DNA of 64,000 nt, from the IMG/VR virus record IMGVR_UViG_3300031088_000001. One strand, 5' to 3'. The stretch's first letter is position 1, and the number at the start of each line of letters is the position of its first letter. This document shows positions 26,481-45,450 of this stretch, piece by piece. The notes beneath the pieces are model-generated. The model saw only the letters and a list, made by a program, of their open reading frames with translations. It did no database searches and had not been told where the DNA came from. Position numbers and translations under genes: made by a program. Origin of the DNA: a virus.

Positions 26481-26505
26481 AAAGGGAGCCTAGGCTCCCT
26501 TTTTC
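26481..26505. terminator. bidirectional intrinsic terminator between the convergent blocks
   Basis: GGGAGC-CTAG-GCTCCC palindrome (26484-26499), flanked by an A-run on one side and TTTTT on the other. Confidence 0.8.
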
Positions 26506-26516
26506 AGGTCTACGGA

Positions 26517-26927
26517 TTAGCGCAGACGTTGGATGCGGTCTTGGTAGACCTTGATCTTGTGCCGAAGTTCCATGTTCTCGCGGGCATACTCCCACGCATG
26601 TTTCTCACCAGCTTTCGACGCACGGGCTTTACCCTTATCGCCAGTTTGGTCAGCAATGATCTTCTTGTTGTGCGCGATCTTCTTCTCCAGCTGCGCAACC
26701 ATCGACTCTAGCTTGTGGATACGATCATCCGCAGCCTTGTCTCGGGTCTTCTTGTCAGTAGCTTTGCGCTTCTGTTTGGCGTAGATGGAGTTTGGATGGT
26801 CCTTGACGTACTTGTCCTGCTTGCTCTTGGTGAGCTTCGCAAACCAGTTGCCAATGTTGAGCGCCTCAGCGCGATTACGGGCCCGTCTCTTTGGACGAGT
26901 CTTGGAGCGGCGCATCGTGGCAGCCAT
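26517..26927 (-). CDS. highly basic coiled-coil protein, unknown function
   Basis: MAATMRRSKTRPKRRARNR... is Lys/Arg-rich throughout. Last gene of the - strand operon. Confidence 0.6.
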   Translation of the reverse strand: MAATMRRSKTRPKRRARNRAEALNIGNWFAKLTKSKQDKYVKDHPNSIYAKQKRKATDKKTRDKAADDRIHKLESMVAQLEKKIAHNKKIIADQTGDKGKARASKAGEKHAWEYARENMELRHKIKVYQDRIQRLR

Positions 26928-29366: not shown

Positions 29367-30254
29367 TTATGCAGCTTGAATGTCTGCTGTCTTTGTATTC
29401 GGGAACGCTCGACCAGTACCCCAAATCAAGCGGCAAGCGCCATTTTGTGCAGCAGTTCCAGGCCCAGAGGAGCCGGCGCCATAGTAAGGGCCTGGGGACG
29501 AACCTGGGACACCGTGATCAGACCTATTAAGCGGTACTCCATTTTCAGCCTTACCTTGCAATCCAACACCGCCACCTATGTAACTACTACCTCCGGACCC
29601 TGGCATTGACACACCAGTACCGCCACCGCTATCGACGTCTGGAGCACCACCTATATTCCATGAGTAATAACCAGAAGTACCGGAACCGCCGTTACCTCCT
29701 TTACCGCCGTTACCTGTGTAGCCTGCTGCTCCGCCGCCTCCGCCACTTGACGCATCATTCGGACCAGACCAAGAACCACCAAATCCACCATTACCACCGT
29801 TGCCACCACCTTTGTTTGTCAACGACACATGATGGGTGTAAGTACCTCCAAGGCCTCCAGGCCCACTGCCATTTGAAAACGACCCTGCGCGTCCATGGCG
29901 ACCAGATGTTGCAGCCATAAGCACGACACCTTTGCGGGATACGCTAGTCACCACGGTGCTAACAGCATTGTATATGGCCGTAACTTGCGAGGCTTGACCG
30001 ACCACGATATCAAGAACTTCGCCGGGTGTTACTGGAATTTCGTTGGCCCAGCATAAGGCACCACCGCCACCGCCACCACCCATGCGGCGACCATTTTCTC
30101 CGCTGCCTGCTCTACCGCCAGGGCCTACGCACACGGCACTAAGCATAGTGACCCCGTCGGGTACAACGAACTGTCGAGATTCGAGAATCGTGATCTGGCC
30201 AATTGGTTGTCTTGGGACCAAGCTGGGGGATTGTCTAGGAATTAGAGTCAGCAT
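29367..30254 (-). CDS. glycine-rich fibre-like protein (paralog 1) with an MLTLIP N-terminal tag
   Basis: Internal ATG after AGGAAG. VVPDGVTMLSAVCVGPGGRAG...GGGGGGGALCWANEIPVTPGEVLDIVVG, long Gly runs, and C-terminus CRLIWGTGRAFPNTKTADIQAA. Confidence 0.7.
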   Translation of the reverse strand: MLTLIPRQSPSLVPRQPIGQITILESRQFVVPDGVTMLSAVCVGPGGRAGSGENGRRMGGGGGGGALCWANEIPVTPGEVLDIVVGQASQVTAIYNAVSTVVTSVSRKGVVLMAATSGRHGRAGSFSNGSGPGGLGGTYTHHVSLTNKGGGNGGNGGFGGSWSGPNDASSGGGGGAAGYTGNGGKGGNGGSGTSGYYSWNIGGAPDVDSGGGTGVSMPGSGGSSYIGGGVGLQGKAENGVPLNRSDHGVPGSSPGPYYGAGSSGPGTAAQNGACRLIWGTGRAFPNTKTADIQAA

Positions 30255-30356
30255 TGTACTTCCTGTGGGTGCCTTTAACACCCGTGCGTCGCATCTGCGA
30301 GGTGATCGCCGTAAGGAAGGCACCGTTCCAGACAGCTTTAGATCATGTTGCGTCAG

Positions 30357-30373
30357 TTTTCGATTACACGTTT
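30357..30373. repeat. 17-nt direct repeat TTTTCGATTACACGTTT (copy 1 of 2)
   Basis: Identical to 31187-31203, which encodes the last residues of the endolysin-like gene. Here it is non-coding and sits just upstream (in - strand sense) of paralog 1. Confidence 0.8.
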
Positions 30374-30377
30374 GGTA

Positions 30378-31175
30378 CTAGGCAGCTTCTGTAATGTCCG
30401 CTGTTCTGGTTTTAGGGAAGGCGCGACCTTTACCCCAGATGAATCGCACAGCGCCACCTTGAGCTTCCGCACCTCCAAAGAATGGACCCGGTGGGGAACC
30501 GTTAGCTTGCGCAGAGTATCCGGTGAAGCTGCCTTGACCGTTTGTTCCTTGGCCTTGCAAACCTACGCCTCCGCTGGCACTACCCTTGTTGGAGCCGCCG
30601 CCTCCACCTGCACCGACACCACCGCCGACCGAGCCATTAGCAAAGCCACCGTCACCCGCATATCCACCAGCGCCACCAGCTGAGGGTGGAGCGCTACCTG
30701 ACGTCATACCGTTAGAGCCCGCGGCACCCTTACCACCACCCCACGTACCTGCAGGCAAAGTAGATGTGAACGTACCGCCAGCACCACCCGTTCGCTGGGG
30801 AGTGCCGCCATTGGCTGAGTTCCCATTGCCGCCATTCTTACCTGCACCAGCGCGCAGTATGACGGTGCCGTTGACTGCGATGGTCGTATCTGTCTGACTT
30901 CCAAGGGTACCAATCTTTACTTCGATGGTATCACCAGGGTTAACAGGTAAGGAGTTTGCCCAACATAGTGCACCGCCTCCACCAGCACCTGCGAAGTAGG
31001 TTACGCTGGGAAAACCAAAGACATAGTTGGCACCACGAGTACCACCTGATCCCACCGCTACGACGCAAAGATTCTCAGCTCCGTCTGGAACAGTGAAGGT
31101 TTGCGAAGAGGTCAGCGTCTGCTGTCCAACAACCGTCGATGGCATGCTTGACTTGACTGGGATTAGCGTGAGCAT
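30378..31175 (-). CDS. glycine-rich fibre-like protein (paralog 2) with an MLTLIP N-terminal tag
   Basis: FTVPDGAENLCVVAVGSGG...GGGGALCWANSLPVNPGDTIEVKIG, Gly runs, and C-terminus VRFIWGKGRAFPKTRTADITEAA. GAGGAA SD. Confidence 0.7.
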   Translation of the reverse strand: MLTLIPVKSSMPSTVVGQQTLTSSQTFTVPDGAENLCVVAVGSGGTRGANYVFGFPSVTYFAGAGGGGALCWANSLPVNPGDTIEVKIGTLGSQTDTTIAVNGTVILRAGAGKNGGNGNSANGGTPQRTGGAGGTFTSTLPAGTWGGGKGAAGSNGMTSGSAPPSAGGAGGYAGDGGFANGSVGGGVGAGGGGGSNKGSASGGVGLQGQGTNGQGSFTGYSAQANGSPPGPFFGGAEAQGGAVRFIWGKGRAFPKTRTADITEAA

Positions 31176-31182
31176 CCGTTCC

Positions 31183-31644
31183 TCACTTTTCGATTACACG
31201 TTTACGGTTGGAGAGCGTGCAGGAAACGCTGATCCAATGTTCCTTGTGCTGCAGGACGTCGAAGTCCTTGAGCGATTTGATGAACGCGAAGATGGCGTCG
31301 TTATCACCACGCAGGCATACAGCTTGCGCGGTGTAGTGCTGCTTCATCGCCAGATACTCTTGCCACTGCTGTTCGCGGATGGGCTTCTTGTTCTCGATAC
31401 ACCACATGGCGAACGCTTTGCGGCTGTACTCGCGCTCCAGGTTCTCGCAGCGATACCACGACGTGATGTACTGCGGCCCAAGCTCAGCCCACAAAGGCTC
31501 AAGCACTTTCTCGGCAAGCAAGGCCGCGTTGTCTGCGTAGTCCTGATTGGGTACGATGTTGTCGATGCCAAGGCGGAATGCCGTTTCGTCGAACTGGACG
31601 TCGTACATGGTGAAGCTCTTGCTGATCTGAATACGGTTGTCCAT
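31183..31644 (-). CDS. putative endolysin, divergent peptidase M15 (VanY / M15_3-like)
   Basis: FTMYDVQFDETAFRLGIDNIVPNQDYADNAALLAEKVLEPLW...ITSWYRCENL follows the N-terminal M15 pattern (F.l.Ef..S.tA...gIdN.P......N...L...vL.p.r......i.SgyR...lN). The metal-ligand positions look altered. It lies next to the holin and spanin candidates. Confidence 0.5.
   Translation of the reverse strand: MDNRIQISKSFTMYDVQFDETAFRLGIDNIVPNQDYADNAALLAEKVLEPLWAELGPQYITSWYRCENLEREYSRKAFAMWCIENKKPIREQQWQEYLAMKQHYTAQAVCLRGDNDAIFAFIKSLKDFDVLQHKEHWISVSCTLSNRKRVIEK
31187..31203. repeat. 17-nt direct repeat TTTTCGATTACACGTTT (copy 2 of 2)
   Basis: Lies within the 3' end of 31183-31644, where the - strand reads AAACGTGTAATCGAAAA = K R V I E K. 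Confidence 0.8.
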
Positions 31645-32111
31645 TACATCACCAGGAAAATGCCCATGAATATGATGACTGCCTTGTGGATCAGCAGCTC
31701 GGTTGTGAGTTCGCGGTACTGCTGGCGTCGCTGGTTCTCGGTGTCAGCGTAGCGCTCTGCGTAGTAGTTACCACGTTCCTCTTCCAGCTTGAGATTCTCC
31801 AGCATCAGGTTGCGCTGGGTCACCAAGCCGTTGTGCGCTGTGAGCAGTAACTGCAACGCTTCGGTGTTCTGCTTGGCTGCTTGCCGATAGGCATTCAGTT
31901 GGTTCATCCCAGCAGTGTCCAGAGTGGCGAAGCGCTCCTCGCCAATCGTCTGAATCTTGATCTGGGGCACCGCAGGTAGATCGACAGCTTTGGCGTTGAG
32001 ACTGTCCACTGGAGCCAACGCGCTGTAGCGATCACTCTTGTCTGGCTGCACTTGGGTCATGCTGCACCCAGTGAGTACGCTCAAGGCGAGCACTGCCAAT
32101 ACCATTTTCAT
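31644..32111 (-). CDS. candidate unimolecular spanin (lipoprotein signal, coiled coil, C-terminal TM)
   Basis: MKMVLAVLALSVLTGC carries the lipobox LTGC. The central part is heptad-like (NQLNAYRQAAKQNTEALQLLL...). The C-terminus is LIHKAVIIFMGIFLVM. ATG 32111 chosen; ATG 32105 is also possible. Confidence 0.55.
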   Translation of the reverse strand: MKMVLAVLALSVLTGCSMTQVQPDKSDRYSALAPVDSLNAKAVDLPAVPQIKIQTIGEERFATLDTAGMNQLNAYRQAAKQNTEALQLLLTAHNGLVTQRNLMLENLKLEEERGNYYAERYADTENQRRQQYRELTTELLIHKAVIIFMGIFLVM

Positions 32112-32162
32112 GTTCGTTACCTGTGCGAAAACCCGCAGCACGGTCAGCACTGCGGGTCCTGG

Positions 32163-32561
32163 TTATGCGCTTTTGGGCGCGTCGGGTAGTTGCTGGACGA
32201 TTTCCTGCATCTTCGCCTCTTGCACTTGGATCGCAGCCTCTTGGCGAGCGATCACGTCAGCGGCAGCACCGGTCACAGGTACCTTGTTGAGCAAGTTGTC
32301 GCACGCAAAGCCAATGGCCATGTACGTCAGCTTGGACGACTCAGGGTCTGTGATGATGGTGAACGCAAACGCTGCAATCGTACCGATGATGGCAGTCTGC
32401 GAGCGCACTGGGTTTGTGGTCCAGTAAGCCAGCAGCCCGATATCGAGTTCACGACAGCGCTTTGCCCAGTTAATGAGAACGCCAATGACAACGCACAGGA
32501 AGTACGTCAGTGCCACGGCGGGTTCGACACCAAGTAGCCCTTTGACTGCCTCGGTTATCAT
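32163..32561 (-). CDS. putative holin (2-3 TM helices, charged C-terminus)
   Basis: TM segments AVALTYFLCVVIGVLINWA and TAIIGTIAAFAFTIIT, a possible third at LTYMAIGFA, then a hydrophilic tail. Sits in the lysis cluster. Confidence 0.6.
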   Translation of the reverse strand: MITEAVKGLLGVEPAVALTYFLCVVIGVLINWAKRCRELDIGLLAYWTTNPVRSQTAIIGTIAAFAFTIITDPESSKLTYMAIGFACDNLLNKVPVTGAAADVIARQEAAIQVQEAKMQEIVQQLPDAPKSA

Positions 32562-32572
32562 GTTGCACGCTC

Positions 32573-32875
32573 CTACTTATCCTCGTTCCAGTTGCGCACA
32601 GCATCGTCCAAACTCTTGTCGGGAGTGACGGGCTTTGGAGCCAGGGTCTGTTCGATCTGCGTGTGTTGGTCCTTTATCACGACCTGCTGTTGCTCCAGGT
32701 CTTTGACGTTTTCATCCGCCTTGGTCATATCTGGTGGAGGTGGAGCAGTCACAGTTGAGCTACTACCACCCTTGGGAAAGGCGCGCACAACAACCGCTAC
32801 TGCCACCCCGAGCAGCAAAGCTCCCAACCACTTGAGCCACTTCACGGAAGAAGTCAACGCACCTTTAACGTCCAT
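32573..32875 (-). CDS. single-pass membrane protein (antiholin, i-spanin-like, or unknown)
   Basis: N-terminal TM WLGALLLGVAVAVVVRAF followed by a Pro-rich and charged segment. Confidence 0.55.
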   Translation of the reverse strand: MDVKGALTSSVKWLKWLGALLLGVAVAVVVRAFPKGGSSSTVTAPPPPDMTKADENVKDLEQQQVVIKDQHTQIEQTLAPKPVTPDKSLDDAVRNWNEDK

Positions 32876-32877
32876 AG

Positions 32878-33111
32878 CTATTCACCTTCTCGATAGTGCT
32901 GGTGAGACGCACGCTTGAGCACCCGATGGAGCCGGCGAGCCAGATCACCTTGGATTGCCCGAGATTGATCTTCAAACTCAGGTTCACGATCAGCTTCCTT
33001 CTTGCGCTTACCCTTGGGCAGTTGCTTCTGGAGCTGGGCTTTTACTGGTGGTAGAATATCGAAACTCACGTTCATGGCATACGTCCGAAAGGATAGTCCA
33101 TAGCCAAGCAT
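32878..33111 (-). CDS. small basic hypothetical protein (start uncertain; ATG 33075 is an alternative)
   Basis: ORF fills the gap, but no clear SD is present and GC3 is only about 48% by hand count. Confidence 0.35.
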   Translation of the reverse strand: MLGYGLSFRTYAMNVSFDILPPVKAQLQKQLPKGKRKKEADREPEFEDQSRAIQGDLARRLHRVLKRASHQHYREGE

Positions 33112-33131
33112 CTGACTATGGACTAAATTAT

Positions 33132-35720
33132 TCAGCCTAGTTTGGACCGACCCTTTTGGGCAATGCGGAAATTGCGGAGTGAAATGTCGCTACTCCACAC
33201 GACCTGACCACTACTCCCACCAAGACGACGGTTGAAGTACATGACAGAAGGGGTGTCCAGCTGAATGTCGATCGGGAACGCGGACTCGCCGATCATCACA
33301 CCGTCAACCCAGCATTGCATCATACCGTTGTCACGGGTAATCTGCATTTTGTACCACTTGTTCATCTGCACTGGGAAGTCGTACAGGCGATAGAAAGTCG
33401 CGTTGCCTCCGTGGTCGGTTGACAAATAGAAGTAACCGTTCGTGGTGTTGTACTGCACTTCCCAGTTTACCAACTTGCCAGGAGCAGCCCAAGTACCCCA
33501 ATATACCAAGGTAATCATGGACGTGCCCGATTGAGATGCAGCCGCAGCGCAGTTGAATTCAATATCAACTGTGAAATCTGTGGTGCCGAACACCATAGAA
33601 CTTGACGGTTGAATTGACAAGTACGAACCTGCAGGTAAACGGACGAAGCCGTCGTTGTAGACAGGAGAGCCATACGCCGACACGAAGGTCTCCAACTTAC
33701 CATTTGTTACCAGAGGAATCACGTCAGGAGTGATGAACTCCAAGACGGGACGCCAAAGTTGGCTTGCTACAGCGCCAGTGTTCGACGATATACCAGCGAT
33801 AGCGTTGTTGGTACCACGACATACACGCGATGTGGTTGTTGTTGACAGGTACTCTTGGCACCATGACCCAGGCACATCCAAACCCAGCTCTTCATTGGTG
33901 AAGGCAGCCCAACGAGTAGCTGCTGAGGCGCTCACGCTCACGCGATTCATCAGCAACGTCCACTCAGACACAGACGCACCCGCAGCACCGTTGCCAGTGT
34001 ATGGGTTAGTGTTGGAGCCTGTGGGAAGGCGAACGCGGAAGTGCCCACCAGCAGTCGTGATGCGTTTGGTCTGCTGCACAGGGCTGGATGAAGGCAGCGG
34101 CTGCACGCCAGTACCCGTCTCCAGGCCATAGACAGCACCTGCTTGGTAGAGTGCCTGCCACGAGATACCGGTGCGCAGTGGCTTCTTCGGAATAAACAGG
34201 ATCTTTCCGTCGAGAGCAAACTTCAACCACGTAGTGTCAGCATTGACGGGCGTACCTTCAGTGAGTCCAAGGTACGCCGCAAGGTCAACACCTTGCATGA
34301 CTTCACTCATAGGCACTTCACCGAAGTAACCCTGATTGAAGTTACCCGCGATCGGCTTCTGTGGACCTGGGCCGTTGTATGGTGTGCGCACGCGCGGCAG
34401 TGCTACACGCGGACGCCCGATGTTACCGTTGTAAAGCGCTTTTGCTGCAATGCGGATGTTGGTGACGTGTAGGGCATCCGAGTTTGCCGGAAAGCTGTCC
34501 CAGTTGTCACGCAAGCCACGAAACGCCGAGTTGTTGATTATTGGCAGAGGAGCGTTCATCTGCCCAACAAGGTCACCGTCGAAGTACATGGAGACGATGT
34601 TACCGACCTTCTCTACTACGACATGGACGTCCGCACCGTACTTCGGAAGAAGCCTGTTGGCATTGAACGCATACGTCGAAGTGCCAGAATAGACATAGGC
34701 AAACTGGAGTTGCAGCGCGCCTGTGAAGAACAAGCACCACGAGTTACCGGCTTGCCCACCGTACGCCCACTGTGTGATAACGCCACACTGCCCGTTACCC
34801 ATAGCTTGAGTGATGCGGAACTTGCACTCAATGGTAAAATCACCTGCACCAAAGTACGCCAATGGTGCCTCGAAGCGAGACGACGAAGGCTGCTGCGTGA
34901 TGATGCGATTCCACTGCATCGCAGCGGTACCAGAGAGCGTGAAAGGCTCGCGGGTGATTTCGTTGACAAACTCGTTACGACGGAAGCTGGACTGGAAGAC
35001 AATGCCACGCTGCTCTTCCTCAGTGTACGTCTCATACACCAGAGCAGGCAGTTCCGTTGGCGGAGTAAACGGGCCATTGTAAGCGGACACGCCGCGCATC
35101 ATGCGAATGTTCCAGCGTTTACCCGTGGCACCGCGACGGATGTTAACGAATTCCGTCGAAGTGAACGCTGCTGTATTGTTGTTCGCAACGTAGATAGGTA
35201 CACCGTTTAAGTAAATCGTCAACACTCCGGCAACACGACCCACGGCGAAATGGTTACTCGTGTTCAGAGCGATCTTGAAATTTGTGCCTATCAGGTAAGG
35301 GGCGACGCCTGCACCTGTGGGTGTCAGCATGAAGTAGATGGCAAGATCACCAGCTACTACCAAGTTGAAGGCGCGGTTGGAGTCATCTGCCGCAGTAGTA
35401 TCCATAGACAAAATACAGCCGCCGAACACGCCGACGCTACTGAAATTCGCCCAACCTTCAATGCTGAAATCTTCACTTGCGGTGATGTAAGTTGGTGGTG
35501 TGCCGTAGAGGGCAGCTGCGTTCTCGTTAGTTGTCAACACGGTACCGTCAGCTTCAACCGTGGCGCCAGAGCCCAAAGTCAACAAGGTCTCACTGGCTTC
35601 ATCCAGAGGCAGTCCTTCCTTAAAGGTTAGTTGCGACCAGACGTACTGATTGTTAGGCGGTGGGCCTCCAGTGCTGCGGGCTACAGGCCACGGAGACAGT
35701 TTGGGGATGATAGATAGCAT
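33132..35720 (-). CDS. tail-fibre / receptor-binding protein with three LamG (concanavalin-A-like) domains and an MLSIIP N-terminal tag
   Basis: Repeated LamG hallmarks: EDFSIEGWANF...LTIYLNGVPI, GDFTIECKFRI...VSMYFDGDLVG, and TDFTVDIEFNC...MQCWVDGVMIG. Confidence 0.75.
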   Translation of the reverse strand: MLSIIPKLSPWPVARSTGGPPPNNQYVWSQLTFKEGLPLDEASETLLTLGSGATVEADGTVLTTNENAAALYGTPPTYITASEDFSIEGWANFSSVGVFGGCILSMDTTAADDSNRAFNLVVAGDLAIYFMLTPTGAGVAPYLIGTNFKIALNTSNHFAVGRVAGVLTIYLNGVPIYVANNNTAAFTSTEFVNIRRGATGKRWNIRMMRGVSAYNGPFTPPTELPALVYETYTEEEQRGIVFQSSFRRNEFVNEITREPFTLSGTAAMQWNRIITQQPSSSRFEAPLAYFGAGDFTIECKFRITQAMGNGQCGVITQWAYGGQAGNSWCLFFTGALQLQFAYVYSGTSTYAFNANRLLPKYGADVHVVVEKVGNIVSMYFDGDLVGQMNAPLPIINNSAFRGLRDNWDSFPANSDALHVTNIRIAAKALYNGNIGRPRVALPRVRTPYNGPGPQKPIAGNFNQGYFGEVPMSEVMQGVDLAAYLGLTEGTPVNADTTWLKFALDGKILFIPKKPLRTGISWQALYQAGAVYGLETGTGVQPLPSSSPVQQTKRITTAGGHFRVRLPTGSNTNPYTGNGAAGASVSEWTLLMNRVSVSASAATRWAAFTNEELGLDVPGSWCQEYLSTTTTSRVCRGTNNAIAGISSNTGAVASQLWRPVLEFITPDVIPLVTNGKLETFVSAYGSPVYNDGFVRLPAGSYLSIQPSSSMVFGTTDFTVDIEFNCAAAASQSGTSMITLVYWGTWAAPGKLVNWEVQYNTTNGYFYLSTDHGGNATFYRLYDFPVQMNKWYKMQITRDNGMMQCWVDGVMIGESAFPIDIQLDTPSVMYFNRRLGGSSGQVVWSSDISLRNFRIAQKGRSKLG

Positions 35721-35786
35721 GGCGAATTCTCTTTAACTTGAAGCTGTCTTTGTGAGACGGGCTCGTCCTTGAGCCGTCGTCATTCC

Positions 35787-38700
35787 CTACACGAAGTCGA
35801 AGGACACCATGCGCCCTTCTTGCAGCGTACCCCAGTACGAAGCAGCTCCGCTCCAGTACACGGACGTGCCTGTACCCATTGCAGCAAGCGGTGTTGTGAA
35901 GCCGCTGTACGGCTGACCACTTAGGTTACCGAACTGCGTACCGTTTATCTCCAGCGTGTTTGTCCACAGAGGAATGTCTGGAGTCGGTGTGATGTTCGTC
36001 ACCTCCCAGCCGATAATCATGTAGTTATTGCGGTCAATGAACAAGCCTTTGATACGGCGCACAATTCCGCCAATCTGCCAGAGTTTCTGCGAGCAACTGC
36101 CCAACGAAATCCAGCCGACTTGGGACGTGTAGTCGCTATTCTCCATGTAACCGTAGAGCGTACCGACACCACCTTGATGGAACCCGAGAGTGATGTGAGG
36201 CTTGGGCTTGCGCACTCGTGGATACTGCGGGAACTTAGGCACGTTGCCTTTGTACTGCGATACCTTAGAGCAACGCAGATCGCGCAAGACGCCAGCGTAG
36301 GAGCTAATGTCACCTCGCTGAATTGCTGTAGGTGATTGTCCGAAGTCGCCAGCGTAGGTTGCAGTAGCACTAGGCACGCCATCGACATACAGCGTGATGG
36401 TAGACCCAACGCGCTCAACAACCACGTAGTATTCCACACCAGCGACAACCGTGATGGTTGACTCCAGCACGACCAGATCAGTCAGCGCAGCACCAGTCTT
36501 CGACAGCACAGCGCCAATGTGACCGTTCATGATACGGAAGTGCCACGAGTTGTCACTGCGCGAGTTCAGGAACTGCCCGATGACTGAGCAAGGGTAGGCT
36601 GCAATGGTGTTGAACAACATGCGGCATTCAATCGTGAAGTCGGCTGCCATAAATGGCGGAGTAGTCTTCGAGAACTGGAATCCACCGCCGTTTGGAATCT
36701 GCAACTGGTTGTTGATTACCAGAGCACCGCCAGAGACAGCAACATACGCCGAGGAGATTTGCTCGATCGGGTTGCTACCGTTGAATTGGGCAACGACGTT
36801 CGCTTGGTCTGCATCGGAGTAGCGACGATCTGGGAACGCTGGGAAGCCGTTGAGCAGCGTAGGCTTGCCGTTGTACATCGCCTTGTCAGCAATACGAATG
36901 TCCCACATCTGTCCAGTGCCGGACCAGAAGTTACCCGCGGCCGACGAGTTGGAGATTGTGTGAGGCATTGCACCGCGGATCGGTGTCGCAATCGTACCCG
37001 CTTTGGTATCGAGCAGAACGCCAGTGTACGCATCCAGCACGTAGATCGTGACGACGCCGTTAACTCGCTCAACGATGATGCGATAGGACAGGCCAGTGGT
37101 GAGCGCAAGATTGGAGATTACGTAGGTAGCACTGGAGCCTGCGGTGTTCGCAGCGATCCCGAAGTACACCTTGCGGTCGTTACCAATGCTGAACGCCCAG
37201 CGGTTACGGTCATCCGACGCTGTGCCGTAGTACCACTCAGCGAGCAAGATGCAACCGTTGGTACCCGTCGCAGTCACCAGCAACGAGGTCTCCAGCGTGA
37301 AGTCACCGGCACCCCAAGGCTCCATCGGAATCTGATGGCAGTTGCCAGTTGCAGACTGCGTGCCACCGAAATACAGACGCCCACGGCGCACATAGCTTGT
37401 GGTGTAACCGAGCAGGTTAACCAGGCGCCCGTTCGCCACGTTGTGGTTGGAGTCTCGACGCATATCGAACTGACAGCGGATAGCGGCCGCATCTTCATCC
37501 GAGTAGACAGTGCGAACGTGCTCCATAGGTGCCAAATCAGGCGTGAAGCTCTCGGTGTGTCGGCAGATGCCGCGGTCGATGTAGAAGTTGCGACGCCAGC
37601 CGTTGAAGCCGTTGCTGGAGCCAGTCATACCCAGGCTCAAGCCTTTGACTGCTGCCTGCTGCGCCTGACTTGCACCAGTGTCAATCGCGTTGATGGTCTG
37701 CTTGACACCGTTGTAGAAGATGTACAGAACACCGTTCTTGCGACCCAACTCAATGTGGAAGTCCACGTTGGCAGCCAGTGTCAGAACGCCTGATGGGATC
37801 ACTGCAACTTGGGTCCCGTCTGCCTTATAGAACCGGAACAGGAAGTTCTGGAAATTGGTAGCCCAGTTGCAGTACCAAGTACCACGTCCACCTTGCGCAT
37901 CACCCGAGAAGATGTGCAGGTCTTTACCCACGTTTGCCGCAAGCTGGGTCGCAGGCGTGAGCGTGATACCCACAGTGAAGTCTTCGGTACCATCGAACAA
38001 CACCATGTCGTCTTCGTACAGACCTTGGCCGTCGGACGTTGTACGCATACGCTGATTGGCAAGCGTAGGCATTGTGTTCCACGACGTCATGAATTTCTCG
38101 GTCACGTCGTCGATGTGCTCATTGTCCTTGAACGACACAAGACGCCAGCGGTACGCATCGCCGATGGTGTTGATAACGCGCTCGCGGGTACTCACGGTGT
38201 TGAACGCTGATCCTGCCGTGTACGCAAGACCCCACGTGGTCCAGTCCGTCGAGGTGAAGATTTTGGTACCGCCAACGATGAACGAGTTCTTGTCGTAGGA
38301 GCTAATGTCCGAGAGCTTTTGCCCAGCACCGCCAAACATGGTGGTCGTGTTCGGCAGCGTTTGCCAGTTGTCACCATCGACACCGAAGAAGATCGTTGGG
38401 CCGCTGCTGGTATTACCTACAGCATAGAACGCATTGCTGTTGGCGTTGTAGCTCATACCGCCATCAACCATGTCTTCGTTGCTGCCGCCGTTACGTGTCT
38501 TCGTCCAGACGCCGTCTTTCTTGCGGTTGATCGACGCACCTTGTTGCAGCGAAGCTAGGGTAGTTGCACTGCCTGCGATGGCCGACTGGACAATGTAGGT
38601 CGAACCCGAGACAGCGTTCTCGTTGACAGCCACGTAGCCCGTACCGTTCCAGTTGAACACGGTGTAACCCGCACCCGATGCGCCACCGTTCTGGTAAATC

Positions 38701-39161
38701 TTGCCGTCAGCATCCCAGCGACGCGCACGCCGCTTGAAGTAGTTGGTGTGCATAGAGGAAGCGTTGATGCGCGTCCACGTAGCGCCGTTGTCCGTAGTGT
38801 AGATACACATACGGTTATTGGTGATGACTAGAAAACGACCAGCGTCATATACAATCGACGCTTGTGCCATTGGCACGTTAGTTATGATATCCGTAGAGAC
38901 CGTGAGCTTAGTCCACGTCACGCCGTCGTCAGTAGACTTCAGGATCGTGGAACTTGCGCCGACAATCATCCAGACGCCACCACCATATGCTGCCATGTGC
39001 AGTTCAGTAGTGACACCAGACGCGGGTTCCGTCCATGTAACGCCGTCGGTAGTACGAGCGATCAGGCCATTAGCACCGACTGCGATTGTAGTGAATCCTT
39101 TCTGGGTCTTCAAAGGTCTGGCGATTGGCCAGAGTGAAAACTTAGGGATGAGTGAGAGCAT
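35787..39161 (-). CDS. tail-fibre / receptor-binding protein: N-terminal BNR (Asp-box) beta-propeller plus LamG domains, with an MLSLIP N-terminal tag
   Basis: Asp-boxes RTTDGVTWT, KSTDDGVTWT, YTTDNGATWT. LamG hallmarks EDFTVGITLTP, GDFTLETSLLV, ADFTIECRMLF, each followed by ...Y.(N/D)G. ATG 39161 chosen over GTG 39167 because it reproduces the shared N-terminus. Confidence 0.75.
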   Translation of the reverse strand: MLSLIPKFSLWPIARPLKTQKGFTTIAVGANGLIARTTDGVTWTEPASGVTTELHMAAYGGGVWMIVGASSTILKSTDDGVTWTKLTVSTDIITNVPMAQASIVYDAGRFLVITNNRMCIYTTDNGATWTRINASSMHTNYFKRRARRWDADGKIYQNGGASGAGYTVFNWNGTGYVAVNENAVSGSTYIVQSAIAGSATTLASLQQGASINRKKDGVWTKTRNGGSNEDMVDGGMSYNANSNAFYAVGNTSSGPTIFFGVDGDNWQTLPNTTTMFGGAGQKLSDISSYDKNSFIVGGTKIFTSTDWTTWGLAYTAGSAFNTVSTRERVINTIGDAYRWRLVSFKDNEHIDDVTEKFMTSWNTMPTLANQRMRTTSDGQGLYEDDMVLFDGTEDFTVGITLTPATQLAANVGKDLHIFSGDAQGGRGTWYCNWATNFQNFLFRFYKADGTQVAVIPSGVLTLAANVDFHIELGRKNGVLYIFYNGVKQTINAIDTGASQAQQAAVKGLSLGMTGSSNGFNGWRRNFYIDRGICRHTESFTPDLAPMEHVRTVYSDEDAAAIRCQFDMRRDSNHNVANGRLVNLLGYTTSYVRRGRLYFGGTQSATGNCHQIPMEPWGAGDFTLETSLLVTATGTNGCILLAEWYYGTASDDRNRWAFSIGNDRKVYFGIAANTAGSSATYVISNLALTTGLSYRIIVERVNGVVTIYVLDAYTGVLLDTKAGTIATPIRGAMPHTISNSSAAGNFWSGTGQMWDIRIADKAMYNGKPTLLNGFPAFPDRRYSDADQANVVAQFNGSNPIEQISSAYVAVSGGALVINNQLQIPNGGGFQFSKTTPPFMAADFTIECRMLFNTIAAYPCSVIGQFLNSRSDNSWHFRIMNGHIGAVLSKTGAALTDLVVLESTITVVAGVEYYVVVERVGSTITLYVDGVPSATATYAGDFGQSPTAIQRGDISSYAGVLRDLRCSKVSQYKGNVPKFPQYPRVRKPKPHITLGFHQGGVGTLYGYMENSDYTSQVGWISLGSCSQKLWQIGGIVRRIKGLFIDRNNYMIIGWEVTNITPTPDIPLWTNTLEINGTQFGNLSGQPYSGFTTPLAAMGTGTSVYWSGAASYWGTLQEGRMVSFDFV

Positions 39162-39395
39162 AAGCACCTACTTGCATGGATTGGTGCGTTGTTGGGATTG
39201 ACCATTACGCAGTGTTGAAATTACACCACCTGCTTGAACTTAGGGAAAGACCCATGTGGTAATACGGCACCGCACACAACCAAGAATGTGATCTTCAAGT
39301 AGTGCAGACTCCAAATCCGCAGTTCAAACGTTCTCCGGTCTAGTTACAAGACAGGGCGCGAAGCGTGGTACAAATATCGGCAGTGTGATTACCTA

Positions 39396-40850
39396 CTATG
39401 CTTGGATTAATTCTATGGTGTAGGTCTCACCGTCAACGAAGTCAGCGAGTGTGTTCCACCAACTGTATATGGTATTACCTAGACCGACCTGCGCAGTAAT
39501 TGTTGAATTAAGGTCGAAATAGAACCATTTACCATTTGCCTTGATCCCTTTGTACTTAGCACGAATATCCGCGTGCGCTCCTGTGATTTCTATGGAGAAT
39601 CCGTTATACCCGTTGTTACCTGAGGCCTGTATCCAATCACAGCAAATCCGAACACCTTCACCTGTCGTGTTTTGAATCGTACCCGCGTTACCTGCAAGCC
39701 CATAACTGCCGTTTGTGTTGTCCACATAACCAGTTGAGCCCAAGTTAGCGTCACTGCCGACTTGCCTGCCTGCAGTAATGGTGAAGGCTTTTGCGATTTT
39801 CTCCTCAACCTTCCAGATGTTGGTCTTGGTAGTTGAGTTGGCAGTAAACAGGCTATGCGTGACAAAGTGCTGCGATCCCCATCGGTAACCCGCTTGGAAA
39901 ATACCAGAGAGCTTGTCGATGGTCTTCCAGTTCTTTACCGAGAGGTCATCAAGTAGCGCCTTGATTTTGGCTACATAGGCTGTTACCTGCGCTTGTGTCG
40001 CGTTAGGATCGTCAGGTTGCGGCGCGAGTGAGGCGATCATCAGGGTGTTGTTTTTCACGAGGAACAGATACTTGTCAACGTGGGCGATGGATTGGACTCC
40101 ATATGGTCGCATGTCCAACAGGCCTGCAGTCTGACCCTGAGTAGGGCCTACATACAGCAGCATCTGCTGGTTTGTGCTCTGGAACCCATAGAACACGTTA
40201 TACCCGAAATACACGTAACGGGCATTTGAGGTCACACCCATACTTGGACCCAGCCCACCGTACTGAATAAACGTTGGGAAGTTCCAGCAGACGAACACGT
40301 TGCTGCCAGATGCTGACCAGGATGTGGAGCCGACTAAGGCATTCTTGCTCTTACCCCAGTAGTACGGGTCGACTGCGGGCGGTGAAGCGGTAGACTTGAC
40401 CGTCGCCGTGCCTGACATATCTTTGGAGTTCGGCCGTGCCTCATAAGCGTTCTGGCTAGATCGGATGATCTGGTAGACCAACTCATTTTTGAAGGCGGTT
40501 AGTGAGCCGTGTCCGTACGTACTACCTGCCATCTTGGTAGTGAAGGTCTTACCGTCTGTGGCTAGCTGGGAGATACTCGCAACGGATCGGCTCGATACCA
40601 ACTTGTCCCCGACAGCGTAGAGTGACGGATAGGGAACACCAGTGTTGAAGTTTGTGGATTCAAATTGGAAGTTCGGGTCAATTCGCTCCACTGGTTGGTT
40701 AGGCGTATAGAACACATTGGGATCGTGGTGAAGCTGATAGTTCATACCAAGATCGCTGATCCTAGCCTTTGTGTACGTGCCGAGAAGTGATACGTCTTGC
40801 CCAAGTCGATCTTTGGGCCAGAGAGCAAAGCGAGGTACTAGGCTAAGCAT
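39396..40850 (-). CDS. fibre-like structural protein of unknown fold with an MLSLVP N-terminal tag
   Basis: Internal ATG 40850 after AGGGA. N-terminus MLSLVPRFALWPKDR. The longest ORF (40943) would run through the upstream terminator. Confidence 0.65.
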   Translation of the reverse strand: MLSLVPRFALWPKDRLGQDVSLLGTYTKARISDLGMNYQLHHDPNVFYTPNQPVERIDPNFQFESTNFNTGVPYPSLYAVGDKLVSSRSVASISQLATDGKTFTTKMAGSTYGHGSLTAFKNELVYQIIRSSQNAYEARPNSKDMSGTATVKSTASPPAVDPYYWGKSKNALVGSTSWSASGSNVFVCWNFPTFIQYGGLGPSMGVTSNARYVYFGYNVFYGFQSTNQQMLLYVGPTQGQTAGLLDMRPYGVQSIAHVDKYLFLVKNNTLMIASLAPQPDDPNATQAQVTAYVAKIKALLDDLSVKNWKTIDKLSGIFQAGYRWGSQHFVTHSLFTANSTTKTNIWKVEEKIAKAFTITAGRQVGSDANLGSTGYVDNTNGSYGLAGNAGTIQNTTGEGVRICCDWIQASGNNGYNGFSIEITGAHADIRAKYKGIKANGKWFYFDLNSTITAQVGLGNTIYSWWNTLADFVDGETYTIELIQA

Positions 40851-40905: not shown

Positions 40906-41436
40906 TTACGCTGCGGCTGTGACGTAGCAGCAGGCTGGCTCACTTACTTGTCCATAAGCATTGACCATTCGGTAGCTGAACGAGTCATTGCCCGTGAAGC
41001 CATTACTGACATACGACATACGCCGACCATCGTTGCTCACACGCGCTACACCATTCTGTGGTTGCCCCAAAATCTGAGGCCAGAACGGTATGGACGTGAC
41101 GAACGAGTTACCTTCTGCCTGTACCATGTTGCTGGTGACGTTGATCGTGGTGTCTTCAAACGGAAGGATTTCCGAGTAGACGCGCACAATGTAGTCCCCA
41201 GGTTCCCGTACAACCAGCTTCCCATCCTCGAAGTAATACTCAGGGAAGAATCCCTCTTCGCGGTTGAGCGTGATCCCGTCAAGCGTGAACACGTCGAACA
41301 TATTGCGGTTGATCGGTACCATGACCAGATAGTCGGTGAACGACGTGTCCTGATAGCTGACACTGCGCGCCTTTACAAGCCCGCGCAGATTTGCCGTGAT
41401 GGGTTTGGCGTAGCGGAATTGACTTTGAGTAATCAT
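40906..41436 (-). CDS. structural protein with a C-terminal Ig/cadherin-like segment
   Basis: VSNDGRRMSYVSNGFTGNDSFSYRMVNAYGQVSEPA resembles bacterial Ig-like / VCBS repeats (..G.D.F.Y...D..G..S..A). Confidence 0.55.
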   Translation of the reverse strand: MITQSQFRYAKPITANLRGLVKARSVSYQDTSFTDYLVMVPINRNMFDVFTLDGITLNREEGFFPEYYFEDGKLVVREPGDYIVRVYSEILPFEDTTINVTSNMVQAEGNSFVTSIPFWPQILGQPQNGVARVSNDGRRMSYVSNGFTGNDSFSYRMVNAYGQVSEPACCYVTAAA

Positions 41437-44390
41437 CAGCCACCTCTCACATAGCCGAAACGTTTCTTGAACTCAGGCTGCGTGACAGGGCACGACGCGG
41501 CGACAGCTACTGGCAAGGTGACGAAAATCCACTTGCCGTCGATCTGACGATACTCCACTTCCAGCTCAAGTCCCAACGTGGCGACGTAAGCCTCAGCCTG
41601 TGCTTGTGTTGCAAACACACCGCGCGATTCGTCGGCCATGGTGTAGCTATTACGCTTCGGCGTCTCGAACGACGGTGCGGCTTTGGCCACTTCCTTGATC
41701 GAAGACACGTTGCGCACGTAAGCCATGGGTTGCTCAGAACGAGTGAGCGCTTGACGCCGCTCATACGCAGTGTTTACACCATAGACAACACGCGACGGAC
41801 GCATAACGAAGCTCAGCGACACCTCGATGCGCTTGTTGTTCGGACGCAGACCCTCGATGAAAGGCATCGGGGAGAACGCCTGACCAAGCGTGTGATGACG
41901 CTGGTAGATCGCATCAACAAAACTCACTGGGTAGCGATAGAACTTGTCCACACCCATAGTGAATTGCCACGCACGGCTCACTTGCGGCTGTTCCCAAACA
42001 GTATCCAGATACATCGGAGCGTTCAGGTGATCCAGCTTGATCTCCATGTCGCGGTACATCGGAGCCTTGGCGGCATAGCGATAGTACGCGAGCGGGCGAT
42101 ACCGTGGAGTGCTCAGCGGAGTCTGCTTGTACGTCAATGGTGAATACTGCGGCGCGTTCAGGTGATTAAGCCTGAAGTTGTCCTTCACGTCGATCTGTAC
42201 CAGCTTGACTGTAGCCACATCGCGGCTGAACTCAGACTGGGTGTATACCGTCTTGCCGAGATAGGAGCGGTTGGCGTCCCAGGCACTGAACAGTATCAGC
42301 TTATCCCAATGCGTGCGCTGGGCTTCGGCTTCTGCCTGCACCTTAAGCACTGTCTGGGAAGGTAGGCGATCCGCAGTCTGGAGTTGCGACTTGGCAAATT
42401 GCGACTTGGTAAGTACAGGTGACGGCACAGCGTTGAGCTTGATGATGCGAGTCTTGTCGCACACTGGCGAGTACCCATCAGCGCTCAGCACTGTAGGTTG
42501 CGTGCTTACATCAGGCTCGTCGGCAGTCCAGCTCTGCACCGAGTTGCTATCGTACCAATCACCGACAAGCGGCTCATTACTCACACGCTCTGGCGGCTCG
42601 TACACAACGGTCAAACCACGAGGCACATCGACCACGTTCTCTTCCCAGACCAATGCACCGTTAAGCTGCATCATCAGGATTGTCCACGTCGCCACAGGTT
42701 TGTCGTACACGGTGTTGATGGTGTACGCAATACGCTGCGCCAAGAGGCTTACTGGGGTGGCGTGAACCACAACAATGTCACCGTTCTTGATCGTGCCTGT
42801 CTTACCGAAGTCACCCCCGTTGACGCTGAACTCGATGATGGATTCATCGGTGTCAATGTCCACGCTGAACCCGTCAGTCATACCTTCGACAGCGAAGAGG
42901 TCCTCGTATTGCACGCGCGGCAGAGCATCGTTCACTTGGTCAAGCGTGCTCAACGTTGGGAACAGCTTCGGCTCGGTGCGCAACTGGAACGTGGTTGCCC
43001 GACGGCCCATGAACGTGACCGCTTGCGCATCGTAGTACGACGCCCGTGCCGGTACGCTGATCTTTACCACGTCGTCTTTCTTCAGGTAACCCGAAGTCCA
43101 CGGAAGACCGTTGACCGTGACCGTCGCGTTCGTGGTGCCGAGCTTGACAAACTCTGGGCGAACCCAGTTGACTGTCCACGTGTACTCATACGCGGCGTTG
43201 TACGGCACGTTCTCCACGATGGTCTGCACAGGGCTGACGTTCGCTTCCGCAGAGGTGACGTCCGCAGCATCCGAATACAGGTCGGTGACAACAACCTCGC
43301 CCATGTAAGCAGCACCAGCCGACCGCACAGTGGTAGCGACGTCGGTCGCATTACCAAGTGTTTGGTCATACTTGATGATGCCAGTGGTGTCGAGGAAGGA
43401 CACGTAGATTTCACTGCGGTAGACCACTACGTCCAGAGGAACCTTGGAGTAGTAGACCGTCTTCTCCAGTGCCTTGGAGTTGCGGTTGATAAGCAGCAAA
43501 CAGCGGTTCGTTGCGTCAACCACATAGACGTATACATCGTTCAGGTCCATGTCGAAGTACAAACCTGGGCGAGCCAGAATCTGCGTCACGGTGAACGAAC
43601 CTGCAACCCGCGCAACTGTGGTGATACCCGAAGCCATGCCCAGATAGAGCAGGCCAGAGTTGTCGCACACAATCGAGGTCAAGCCTGTGAACGTGCCAGT
43701 CTGGGTATACAGCAGCGCGCCCGCGTTGCTCCAGACTTCGATACGGTCAGCGAAGCCGATGACAATGTTGCCTTCCATGTCGCCAGTGGCAGCCAGAGGC
43801 GTACCAGTCAGCGTGTAGGACGAGTCAACGGCGAACAGGTTGGTGAGTTTGTACAGCTTGCCAGCAGTGACTACCCAAGGCACGGCAGCAACGTTGTCAG
43901 CTTCGCTCCAGATAGGAGAAAAGGTGATCGCGACAGGTGTTTCCGCAAAGGTGAGTTTCTTCACCTCGTCGGCAGTGTTGAAGAACCAGATTTCCTTCTT
44001 GGCGTAGTCGATGGATGCGACTGCATCGGCAACGGTGAAGGTTCCGGTGGCTGCGTAGGACAGTTGCTTGCTCGACCCTGGCTTGTACAGCTTGCCATAG
44101 GTAGAGCCGGTGATCGCCTTGTACGCCTGGGTAGTGACGTAACGCAGAGTCTTGGGCAGGTCAACGAACCAGAGGTAAGTCTTCCCGGCGAGAACCACGC
44201 TAATCTCGGCGTATGCAGTCACGGTAGTCGTGAGACGTGCCGTGTCACCTTTCGTAACCTGAATGTCCGTATTCGCAGCGTAGTCTTGGCCCTTGTACGT
44301 GACCACGCAACCCGCTTTCAGAACACCAGTGGCGTCTAGGGTTACGTCTACGTAGGTTGAGCCAGAAGCCAAGCTAACTGGAATAAACAT
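41436..44390 (-). CDS. large baseplate/tail structural protein (984 aa) with a beta-propeller-like region
   Basis: Long ORF in the structural operon. Segments such as VYVYVVDATNRCLLLINRNS and IYVSFLDTTGIIKYD resemble NHL/YVTN-type blades. Confidence 0.6.
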   Translation of the reverse strand: MFIPVSLASGSTYVDVTLDATGVLKAGCVVTYKGQDYAANTDIQVTKGDTARLTTTVTAYAEISVVLAGKTYLWFVDLPKTLRYVTTQAYKAITGSTYGKLYKPGSSKQLSYAATGTFTVADAVASIDYAKKEIWFFNTADEVKKLTFAETPVAITFSPIWSEADNVAAVPWVVTAGKLYKLTNLFAVDSSYTLTGTPLAATGDMEGNIVIGFADRIEVWSNAGALLYTQTGTFTGLTSIVCDNSGLLYLGMASGITTVARVAGSFTVTQILARPGLYFDMDLNDVYVYVVDATNRCLLLINRNSKALEKTVYYSKVPLDVVVYRSEIYVSFLDTTGIIKYDQTLGNATDVATTVRSAGAAYMGEVVVTDLYSDAADVTSAEANVSPVQTIVENVPYNAAYEYTWTVNWVRPEFVKLGTTNATVTVNGLPWTSGYLKKDDVVKISVPARASYYDAQAVTFMGRRATTFQLRTEPKLFPTLSTLDQVNDALPRVQYEDLFAVEGMTDGFSVDIDTDESIIEFSVNGGDFGKTGTIKNGDIVVVHATPVSLLAQRIAYTINTVYDKPVATWTILMMQLNGALVWEENVVDVPRGLTVVYEPPERVSNEPLVGDWYDSNSVQSWTADEPDVSTQPTVLSADGYSPVCDKTRIIKLNAVPSPVLTKSQFAKSQLQTADRLPSQTVLKVQAEAEAQRTHWDKLILFSAWDANRSYLGKTVYTQSEFSRDVATVKLVQIDVKDNFRLNHLNAPQYSPLTYKQTPLSTPRYRPLAYYRYAAKAPMYRDMEIKLDHLNAPMYLDTVWEQPQVSRAWQFTMGVDKFYRYPVSFVDAIYQRHHTLGQAFSPMPFIEGLRPNNKRIEVSLSFVMRPSRVVYGVNTAYERRQALTRSEQPMAYVRNVSSIKEVAKAAPSFETPKRNSYTMADESRGVFATQAQAEAYVATLGLELEVEYRQIDGKWIFVTLPVAVAASCPVTQPEFKKRFGYVRGG

Positions 44391-44454: not shown

Positions 44455-45450
44455 TTAGACGGCTTCAGGTACACCGCCACCCGACACGAGGAGCAGCAGA
44501 CGCATGCCGGCGTTGTTCGGCTTGTTGGCCTTCATCGCGCGGTAGATACGATCCGAAGTCTCGCCGTAGACGCGAACCGGGATTTCCGATTCTTCGCCGA
44601 TCACGTCAGCCGAGGTGTACGCGAACAGGTCGAGTTCCTCGGTGTAAGCGTAACGGTCGGTGTTCAGACGGTTCGGGAAGGTCACCAGGTACTTGTTACC
44701 CTTGGCGATTGCAACCTGATCCTGGCTGTTCAGGATCGCCGCGCTGTTCACCGAGTCGGCGTCAGCCGGCTTGCTGATGGATGGACGGAAGACGTCCTTC
44801 TCGTTGACAACGAACTTCATCGGGCCCGAGGTATCGCACTCGTAGACCACGAAGATCGGCGAGTTGTCGGTGATCAGGGCGACACCGGTGTCCTTGTTCA
44901 CAGGAACTTGGACGTTGAAGAAGCTGTAACGCGGGTTGGCGTCGGAAGCATCTTCCCAGACGAACAGGGTGATACCGCGTGGGGTGGCTACCAGCAGGTA
45001 GGACAGGGTAGTACCCAGGTCGTAGCCGCTGTTCTGCACGTCACGGTTGATGAAGGTGTCGCCGATCACAGGCTGCGGTTTGGTCCAGGAAGTACCCAGC
45101 TGACCCATGACACGAGTACCATTGATATCTACGCCCGAACCTGGGAACGAGGTGACGGCACCCGCAGTGGTGATCTGCTGTGGGTTGGCAATTGCCATCT
45201 TGATCTTGCCCGCACCAGCAGTAGCGCCCGACAGGTCGAGCAGCAGACGCCATGGTTGGGTTTCGTTCAGTGGGTTGACGCCCGCCGAAGAGTCGAAGAC
45301 GAACTTGCCTGCACCACTGGTGACAGAGAAGTTCTGGCCCGAAGCCGGCAGAACCTGAGTCAGACCCGCGCTTTTCAGGTCGGCGAACAGTGCGGTCGCG
45401 AACTGATCGAGACCTTGCAGTTTGGACTTCTTGTAAATCTTACCAGCCAT
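44455..45450 (-). CDS. virion structural protein of unknown family (331 aa), probably abundant
   Basis: GGAGAAACAAC-ATG start and its own downstream terminator. No family recognised. Confidence 0.65.
   Translation of the reverse strand: MAGKIYKKSKLQGLDQFATALFADLKSAGLTQVLPASGQNFSVTSGAGKFVFDSSAGVNPLNETQPWRLLLDLSGATAGAGKIKMAIANPQQITTAGAVTSFPGSGVDINGTRVMGQLGTSWTKPQPVIGDTFINRDVQNSGYDLGTTLSYLLVATPRGITLFVWEDASDANPRYSFFNVQVPVNKDTGVALITDNSPIFVVYECDTSGPMKFVVNEKDVFRPSISKPADADSVNSAAILNSQDQVAIAKGNKYLVTFPNRLNTDRYAYTEELDLFAYTSADVIGEESEIPVRVYGETSDRIYRAMKANKPNNAGMRLLLLVSGGGVPEAV

Follow-up and report, generated by a model that had tools for sequence, protein, structure and literature searches.

A conserved N-terminal peptide on modular lectin-type proteins of PaBG-like jumbo myoviruses: a candidate docking tag

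The locus and its tagged genes

The viral DNA analyzed here is a stretch of 64,000 nucleotides (nt) from the IMG/VR record IMGVR_UViG_3300031088_000001, in the following called the window. On its minus strand, between positions 29367 and 40850, it contains five open reading frames (ORFs) whose products start with a common short peptide, here referred to as the tag. The genes are clustered downstream of fibre and tail genes (Table 1). The five N-termini had been proposed in an earlier note on this DNA and were recovered with starts at 30254, 31175, 35720, 39161 and 40850. The same note had stated that in three of the genes the motif becomes apparent only if an internal ATG with its own Shine-Dalgarno (SD) sequence is used. 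This was borne out, as the longest ORFs of these genes open further upstream, at GTG codons at 30323, 39167 and 40943, and an SD-like element (AGGAAG, GAGGA, AAGAG, AGGTG or AGGGA) is located 5-9 nt 5' of every tag ATG. All five tag starts lie in one common minus-strand reading frame, for which the chance is approximately 1 in 81; this is probably a coincidence.

The six-frame translation of the 64 kilobases (kb) contains the pattern ML[ST][LIVM][IV]P five times, each time at the start of a tagged ORF, while a count of 0.03 is expected from the residue frequencies. A DNA pattern for the form of the tag with a W-P core gave three matches in the window and none in 100 shuffles. With a position-specific scoring matrix (PSSM), the five tags reached 27-46 bits, and the runner-up among the 2,095 candidate starts of the window scored 4.6. 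When related loci were included, the tags again reached 27-46 bits and all other candidate starts remained at or below 5.6.

Table 1. Tagged genes, tag copies and neighbouring features of the window
Feature	Position	Strand	Remarks
Tagged protein, 484 amino acids (aa), without known domain	39396..40850	-	no family matched; near-identical orthologue (P0075) called from the same start
Tag copy 1, MLSLVPRFALWPKDR	40806..40850	-	codons 1-15 of the gene for the 484-aa protein; PSSM 38.9 bits; SD AGGGA upstream
Tagged protein, 1124 aa	35787..39161	-	N-terminal BNR/Sortilin-like propeller (weak matches), followed by LamG-type regions
Tag copy 2, MLSLIPKFSLWPIAR	39117..39161	-	1124-aa protein; PSSM 44.1 bits
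Tagged protein, 862 aa	33132..35720	-	three Laminin_G_3 stretches (PF13385, E=1.5e-24)
Tag copy 3, MLSIIPKLSPWPVAR	35676..35720	-	862-aa protein; PSSM 41.1 bits
Tagged Gly-rich protein, 265 aa	30378..31175	-	downstream of the endolysin gene, outside the main cluster; matches phrog_4474
Tag copy 4, MLTLIPVKSSMPSTV	31131..31175	-	265-aa protein; degenerate, M-P replacing W-P; PSSM 27.6 bits
Tagged Gly-rich protein, 295 aa	29367..30254	-	phrog_4474, E=2.7e-39; paralogue of the 30378-31175 product
Tag copy 5, MLTLIPRQSPSLVPR	30210..30254	-	295-aa protein; without W-P, R15 kept; PSSM 36.7 bits
Lysis cassette	31183..32875	-	endolysin 31183-31644; lipoprotein/spanin-like 31644-32150; two membrane proteins; cassette matches phrog_894 and phrog_23384
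Candidate partner, 176-aa tandem immunoglobulin (Ig)-like protein (Big_9, PF17963)	40906..41436	-	directly upstream of the tagged set
Candidate partner, 984-aa protein	41436..44390	-	stop codon overlaps the start of the 176-aa Ig gene
Conserved 331-aa protein heading the block	44455..45450	-	phrog_12249; PaBG orthologue gp261

Bodies of the tagged proteins

Behind the tag, the five proteins belong to three unrelated groups: the Gly-rich pair, the pair with LamG regions and the 484-aa protein. The assumption that the five bodies are otherwise unrelated thus holds between these groups (z ~0 for all other pairs), but not within the Gly-rich pair, whose members are paralogues (z=17), nor within the LamG pair, in which the 862-aa and 1124-aa proteins have LamG regions in common (z=26). 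In its central domain, the 862-aa protein resembles phage PHROGs with the annotation 'virion structural protein' (phrog_1062/3589/16120). For the 484-aa protein, a tagged homologue with 31% identity and the N-terminus MLSAIPQLAGWPYAR exists in one of the related genomes described below (L093). The initial description of the proteins as fibre-like could not be upheld, since the matched modules (Laminin_G_3, weak BNR/Sortilin, phrog_4474) are globular and of the lectin type. Beta-helix or lyase families were not matched by any of the cargo proteins in Pfam or PHROGs.

The globular part of the tagged proteins begins approximately 16-25 residues past Met1, that is, directly behind the tag. The Gly-rich domain of phrog_4474 carries an N-terminal region of about 130 residues in other phages. 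The 265-aa protein aligns to positions 133-404 of the 407 positions of this profile and, since the match begins at about position 133, the tag takes the place of the N-terminal region of about 130 residues.

The tag in related genomes

The structural proteins of the window have 62-66% identity to their counterparts in Pseudomonas phage PaBG, which belongs to the genus Baikalvirus and is a jumbo myovirus with a genome of 258 kb. Among 50,697 phage records, megablast did not reveal any nucleotide match to the region, and PaBG was found by protein-level searches only. The 176-aa protein of the locus is encoded in unchanged form on 65 metagenomic contigs of up to 266 kb. From the PaBG-like structural proteins and the presence of the 176-aa protein on metagenomic contigs it can be concluded that the window stems from an uncultured jumbo phage of the PaBG clade.

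A search for the motif in related phages and orthologues had been suggested as a check, and it was carried out. The related genomes comprise PaBG, two IMG/VR contigs of 277 kb and 149 kb, the contig RCUJ01003306 and eight further metagenomic contigs. In addition to PaBG, ten related contigs were retrieved by a degenerate-DNA scan of IMG/VR and by anchor-gene searches of IMG/VR, JGI metagenomes and a collection of 15 billion proteins. The tag was kept in 12 of the 12 related genomes, with 22 clear instances at the same locus, and each related locus contains at least one tagged ORF downstream of a conserved gene pair that is described below. At the syntenic locus of PaBG, two 'putative adhesins' start with MLSLIPRLAPWPL(V/P)R and a fibrinogen-like protein starts with MFKIPSISPWPGDRP. 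Examples of the tag N-termini in the relatives are MLSLIPKFALWPFVR, MLALIPARSPWPFVR, MLTLVPSRSPWPGPR, MLGLIRKFAQWPYPL, MLSAIPQLAGWPYAR, MLALLPKLAPWPFAR and MLSLIPRLSPWPTAR. The consensus of the 22 instances is M-L-[ST]-L-I-P-[KR]-[LF]-[AS]-P-W-P-x-[PA]-R. Across the clade, the bodies behind this peptide contain LamG, BNR-like, Gly-rich, F5/8-type-C and fibrinogen-like modules.

The tag is restricted to this locus and to this clade. When the complete PaBG genome was scanned with a PSSM built without the PaBG tags, gp215 (42.7 bits) and gp216 (36.3 bits) ranked on top and the next of 9,203 starts scored only 7.0 bits, which demonstrates that the tag is confined to this locus in PaBG. An exhaustive HMMER scan with the five N-termini of the window retrieved their own proteins or close orthologues and two repetitive false matches; this outcome is consistent with a clade restriction, although a motif of about 16 residues gives such a search low power. 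A 40-aa tag profile run against an index of 5.8 billion proteins yielded 164 word-sharing candidates, none of which scored, and was uninformative.

The distribution of the tag over its bodies is modular. A tagged protein of 1060 aa in one relative (L087) is homologous over its residues 32-441 to untagged proteins of about 410 aa in two others (L096/L097; E=1e-41 to 4e-63), which sit there behind a separate tagged protein of 112-115 aa. Several genomes encode small proteins (83-133 aa) that start with the tag. Thus, one and the same cargo can either be tagged directly or be accompanied by a separate tagged protein.

In some relatives, a second recurrent N-terminus (MTIHLFEGF, MIHLLDGFNWP, MIYIADGFIWP, MIHFFEGFWWP) was detected on proteins of 276-390 aa, encoded at 12612-13442 and 16596-17768 in L092 and at 11941-13071 and 13355-14461 in L099. 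The starts of these genes overlap the stops of tagged genes, in three cases that of a LamG gene and in one case that of the 83-aa tagged protein. This class is not present in the window. A function as chaperones is conceivable for the MxIHLxxGF proteins, or they might represent another class of tag. The tag itself might be a handle by which a common assembly chaperone or folding factor engages the nascent N-terminus of each adhesin, either to pass the protein on or to assist its folding, instead of being the final attachment point. The conservation, modularity and locus restriction of the tag fit this explanation equally well, and the translational coupling of MxIHLxxGF genes to tagged LamG genes would agree with it. 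However, no such coupled gene follows the tagged genes of the window, and it is left unexplained why some untagged bodies are preceded by a small, separate tagged protein. Moreover, C-terminal regions are the usual targets of phage fibre chaperones, which also speaks against it. We therefore regard a chaperone handle as unlikely.

In PaBG, the Ig gene is separated from the genes of the tagged adhesins by a family of paralogues of about 600 aa (L001 27715-35442, gp222-gp218), with equivalents in L095/L099. Their N-termini are only loosely tag-like (MKLVPLRRKGIPAR, MRKLLPKPIK), and a 132-aa protein among them starts with MSLTSIFRLAPVRA. The window is devoid of this family.

Conservation at the peptide level

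Selection acts on the peptide. Where tags have identical residues, the same codon is used in only 16 of 61 cases in the window and in 349 of 1392 cases overall (~25%). As the codons differ at identical residues, the synonymous sites are randomized and the conservation lies in the peptide. The DNA upstream of the tag starts has nothing in common beyond an SD. In homologous pairs, the tags are 53-80% identical compared to 34-48% for the bodies; for the 1124-aa protein and its orthologue in L087, whose bodies are 48% identical, 12 of the 15 tag residues agree. Between the 862-aa protein and its close orthologue P0076, changes in the tag are confined to the variable positions 4, 7, 8, 13, 14 and 16. 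Variants with R in place of P6 occur, but the lineages are few and non-independent, so that co-variation with the sequence of the Ig protein could not be used.

These data bear on the idea that the tag has no function of its own. It would then either have been left over from a common ancestor or be explained at the nucleotide level, for instance as a linker for recombination in gene swapping or as a signal for translation initiation. The adjacency of the genes, some of which are paralogous, would be in line with this idea. By contrast, the residues are kept while the synonymous sites are randomized, the similarity of the upstream DNA ends with the SD, and the peptide is not only more conserved than the bodies but also present on bodies without detectable mutual homology. 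An origin as a DNA repeat or recombination linker was rejected on the codon evidence, and a tag without function is hardly credible at all.

An inspection of the tag by Sec, Tat and lipoprotein criteria revealed L-x-L-I as the longest hydrophobic run, prolines at positions 6, 10 and 12, and neither an Ala-x-Ala motif nor a Cys lipobox. The interpretation as a signal peptide was thus rejected on motif composition. Another address label that has to be considered is the capsid-targeting sequence of T4, an N-terminal peptide of about 10 residues which occurs on unrelated internal proteins, directs them into the prohead core and is cleaved at L/I-x-E. A short N-terminal peptide common to unrelated proteins is what the tag shares with it, and it is conceivable that the tag likewise mediates entry into the prohead, followed by cleavage by the maturation protease. 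In PaBG, proteolysis of virion proteins does take place, and a gene for a head maturation protease is present (PMC7412058). Yet a conserved Glu or an L/I-x-E site was not found in the 22 tags, and no conserved Glu-based cleavage motif follows them, positions 13-16 being variable apart from R15. Besides, the cargo is not made up of internal head proteins; it consists of extracellular-type lectins of up to 1,231 aa, encoded between tail-fibre and lysis genes and not with the head genes. A capsid-targeting function was rejected on the basis of the motif composition and must be considered very improbable. Motif composition and codon data therefore contradict the capsid-targeting explanation as well as those based on a relic or on the nucleic acid.

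Conserved genes upstream of the tagged set

The tagged set is linked to two upstream genes. In the relatives, it always follows a gene for a protein of 960-1050 aa and one for a protein of about 176 aa, the start of the latter overlapping the stop of the former. The 984-aa family (29 clusters) and the 176-aa family occupy the same contigs; the latter consists of 45 homologue clusters, with tagged genes downstream in all loci examined. Among the 50,697 isolate records, the 984-aa family was found in PaBG only. In the region of phage NCTB that was examined, neither the gene pair nor the tag is present. In one relative (contigs L088/L092 1-10531, from IMG/VR 3300001594 and JGI 3300001592), the unit of propeller, Ig and tagged gene is tandemly duplicated. 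The tagged protein of the second unit has 798 aa, contains Calx-beta-like as well as Gly-rich regions and starts with a diverged tag, MLTNLPILSPKK. The gene for the 331-aa protein occurs twice between the two units.

According to a confident AlphaFold2 model, residues 1-573 of the 984-aa protein comprise an N-terminal sandwich, a 7-bladed beta-propeller and PKD/Ig domains. Foldseek aligned the model with 1l0q at E=1e-10 and with propellers at template modelling scores (TM) of ~0.7. A segment of about 350 residues (~574-922) does not have a single conserved column in the 29 homologue clusters and is unmodelled, with a predicted local distance difference test score (pLDDT) below 35; in some homologues, this hypervariable segment contains short degenerate repeats. 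The N-terminal 570 residues in front of this segment are well conserved, and the C-terminus of the family is again conserved and always reads G-Y-x-x-G-G (GYxxGG) followed by the stop codon. The 176-aa protein was confidently modelled as all-beta (AlphaFold2, pLDDT 88.7), and its Foldseek neighbours are only generic Ig folds. For such a partner, a conceivable mode of binding would be donor-strand complementation as in chaperone-usher pili, in which an Ig domain that lacks a strand has an open groove and an N-terminal extension occupies it. Sequence and profile searches of the PDB with the 984-aa, 331-aa, 484-aa and 176-aa proteins gave nothing significant.

The 331-aa protein at the head of the block and the 176-aa protein have orthologues in PaBG, gp261 and gp263, that are abundant virion proteins (PMC7412058 Table 1); gp263 corresponds to virion band 14, the numbering of that table having been mapped to GenBank. 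The 331-aa orthologue is labelled 'tail sheath' in RefSeq, as is its PHROG family. This label is probably wrong, because several larger PaBG genes elsewhere bear the same label. In jumbo phages of the Lu11, NCTB and Erwinia Y3 type, the 331-aa family is multi-copy, with 2-5 places per genome.

Genomic surroundings

The lysis cassette, which is syntenic with PaBG gp210-213, separates the genes of tag copies 1-3 from those of copies 4-5. The two Gly-rich tagged genes (29367-31175) lie between the endolysin gene and the gene for a NUDIX hydrolase. As the corresponding PaBG region (233311-234906) does not contain a tagged gene, the Gly-rich pair of the window looks as if it had been inserted apart from the main group of adhesin genes. 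Within the tail-fibre module, a gene for an HNH endonuclease was detected at 51062-51898, and four neighbouring genes at 52379-59674 encode collagen-repeat fibre proteins. The orientation of the ORFs switches at about 26000-26900, being mostly plus from position 1 to about 26 kb and minus beyond, and at the same place the AT skew changes its sign.

Discussion

The earlier note had regarded a conserved N-terminal tag of this shortness as undescribed. In general, this is not correct, and the principle of a short N-terminal docking peptide is already established. The tailspikes of the phages K1E, K1-5 and SP6 possess N-terminal peptides of 7 and 11 residues, which dock on a gp37-type, gp10-like adaptor (Leiman 2007, as cited in PMC6872550), and KP34-like phages have the N-terminal peptide MALxxLV (PMC6872550). 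For KP32, K11 and KP34, the docking role of the conserved N-terminal peptide of the second receptor-binding protein (RBP2) was shown experimentally in 2026, and in Klebsiella podophages the short-peptide design rule is now exploited (PMC13352976).

The locus described here resembles K1E, K1-5 and SP6 in that a very short conserved N-terminal peptide takes the place of a full anchor domain and would let different receptor-binding proteins (RBPs) share one attachment protein. The latter phages, however, are podoviruses whose two tailspikes are trimeric enzymes and whose adaptor is T4 gp10-like, while the window represents a jumbo myovirus in which the globular lectins can number five or more, with an unrelated motif and no detected gp10-like domain. 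The logic is also that of KP32, K11 and KP34, where an anchor or branching partner (the branching domain of RBP1) is combined with a short N-terminal peptide that is necessary for incorporation and portable between cargo proteins. Their virions contain one secondary RBP each, with a depolymerase beta-helix as cargo, other motifs (MALxxLV) and an experimentally defined partner, whereas the partner proposed for the window is deduced from synteny and co-duplication. Measured against the K1-5/SP6 and KP32/KP34 type as a whole, the window has at least two genes of the receptor-binding type clustered in the tail module and a short conserved peptide replacing the anchor domain (22 instances, 12 genomes), but no trimeric tailspike or depolymerase beta-helix cargo. 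The stand-alone tagged adaptors of the PaBG clade are another difference from the established docking peptides. By analogy, the tag may work like a docking peptide; membership of the gp10-branching family is not claimed. Multi-RBP jumbo phages of the PhiK64-1/RaK2 and Menlow groups have been modelled as anchor-multibranched systems (PMC6872550). They too are large myoviruses with many RBP genes in a row, and some conserved N-terminal segments were proposed as attachment elements. These segments, though, span about 90-300 residues, belong to depolymerase tailspikes and have no sequence relation to the tag of the window.

On balance, it is rather probable that the N-terminal peptide of about 15 residues can be transferred between proteins and mediates the docking or assembly of a modular set of lectin-type adhesins, a proposal that is based on sequence comparisons. 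According to this proposal, the virion of PaBG-like jumbo myoviruses would have a single conserved site to which the tag attaches variable globular lectin-type modules. A genome could then gain, lose or swap host-binding modules while the remainder of the tail is unchanged, and in some relatives an untagged body would be connected through a tagged adaptor protein of 83-133 aa. A conserved tag needs a conserved receptor. Due to their linkage to the tagged genes, the propeller/PKD protein and the tandem-Ig protein are the best candidates, and one of the two is most likely the partner of the tag. The shared docking tag suggested in the earlier note is supported insofar as the peptide is conserved, more so than the bodies, at one locus, on shuffled bodies and beside the upstream pair; support does not extend to a socket that is specifically part of the baseplate. 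The upstream products had been named as candidates for just such a baseplate socket. They are indeed always located beside the tag and, in one relative, were duplicated together with it, but they did not reveal any baseplate or gp10-like fold.

Several observations weigh against a docking function. A T4 gp10-like domain, the known type of socket, was not matched by Foldseek for either the 984-aa or the 176-aa protein, and the Pfam families of the gp9/gp10 type were not matched by any of 20 proteins of the tail region. The bodies show no sign of being built as trimeric fibres or spikes like classical RBPs, the W-P core is missing from two of the five tags of the window, and the location of the Gly-rich tagged genes beyond the lysis cassette is unusual for structural genes. 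In addition, the tagged adhesins of PaBG were absent from the 14 virion bands visible after Coomassie staining (PMC7412058).

The last two points would be expected if the tagged proteins did not belong to the virion. They might be soluble or envelope-directed late lectins that mask receptors, bind biofilm or extracellular polymeric substances or are associated with lysis, the tag guiding them to a common partner or compartment outside the virion. Besides their position on both sides of the lysis cassette, with two genes beyond the endolysin gene, and their failure to appear among the major PaBG virion bands, the expanding haloes around PaBG plaques (PMC7412058) are compatible with such a role. 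On the other hand, the hydrophobic run of only four residues and the three prolines are not features of a signal peptide, the central domain of the 862-aa protein resembles proteins annotated as virion structural, and the tagged genes are tightly linked to genes whose orthologues in PaBG encode abundant virion proteins (PMC7412058). Lectins acting outside the virion are thus an improbable explanation, and docking to the virion is preferred.

A more far-reaching and rather doubtful idea is that the tag constitutes the cargo half of a peptide-in-socket system that evolved independently and is unrelated to branching of the T4 gp10 type. Here the 7-bladed propeller or the tandem-Ig protein would capture the M-L-S-L-I-P...P-W-P..R peptide, and the virion would display exchangeable monomeric lectins. 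Small tagged adaptors would bring in untagged cargo, and the duplicated pairs of socket and diverged tag might serve as orthogonal channels.

If the docking function proves true, a compact handle of 15 residues would allow a jumbo myovirus to be loaded with arbitrary binding modules in a plug-and-play manner, and docking by short peptides would extend beyond gp10-like branching domains and tailspike cargo. In practical terms, the motif may be used as an annotation rule that fixes start codons and flags host-interaction genes in unannotated PaBG-like genomes. For the PaBG clade, a docking function would explain how the adhesin repertoire can range from a single module to five or more, through fusion and fission events that involve adaptors, while the rest of the tail remains constant.

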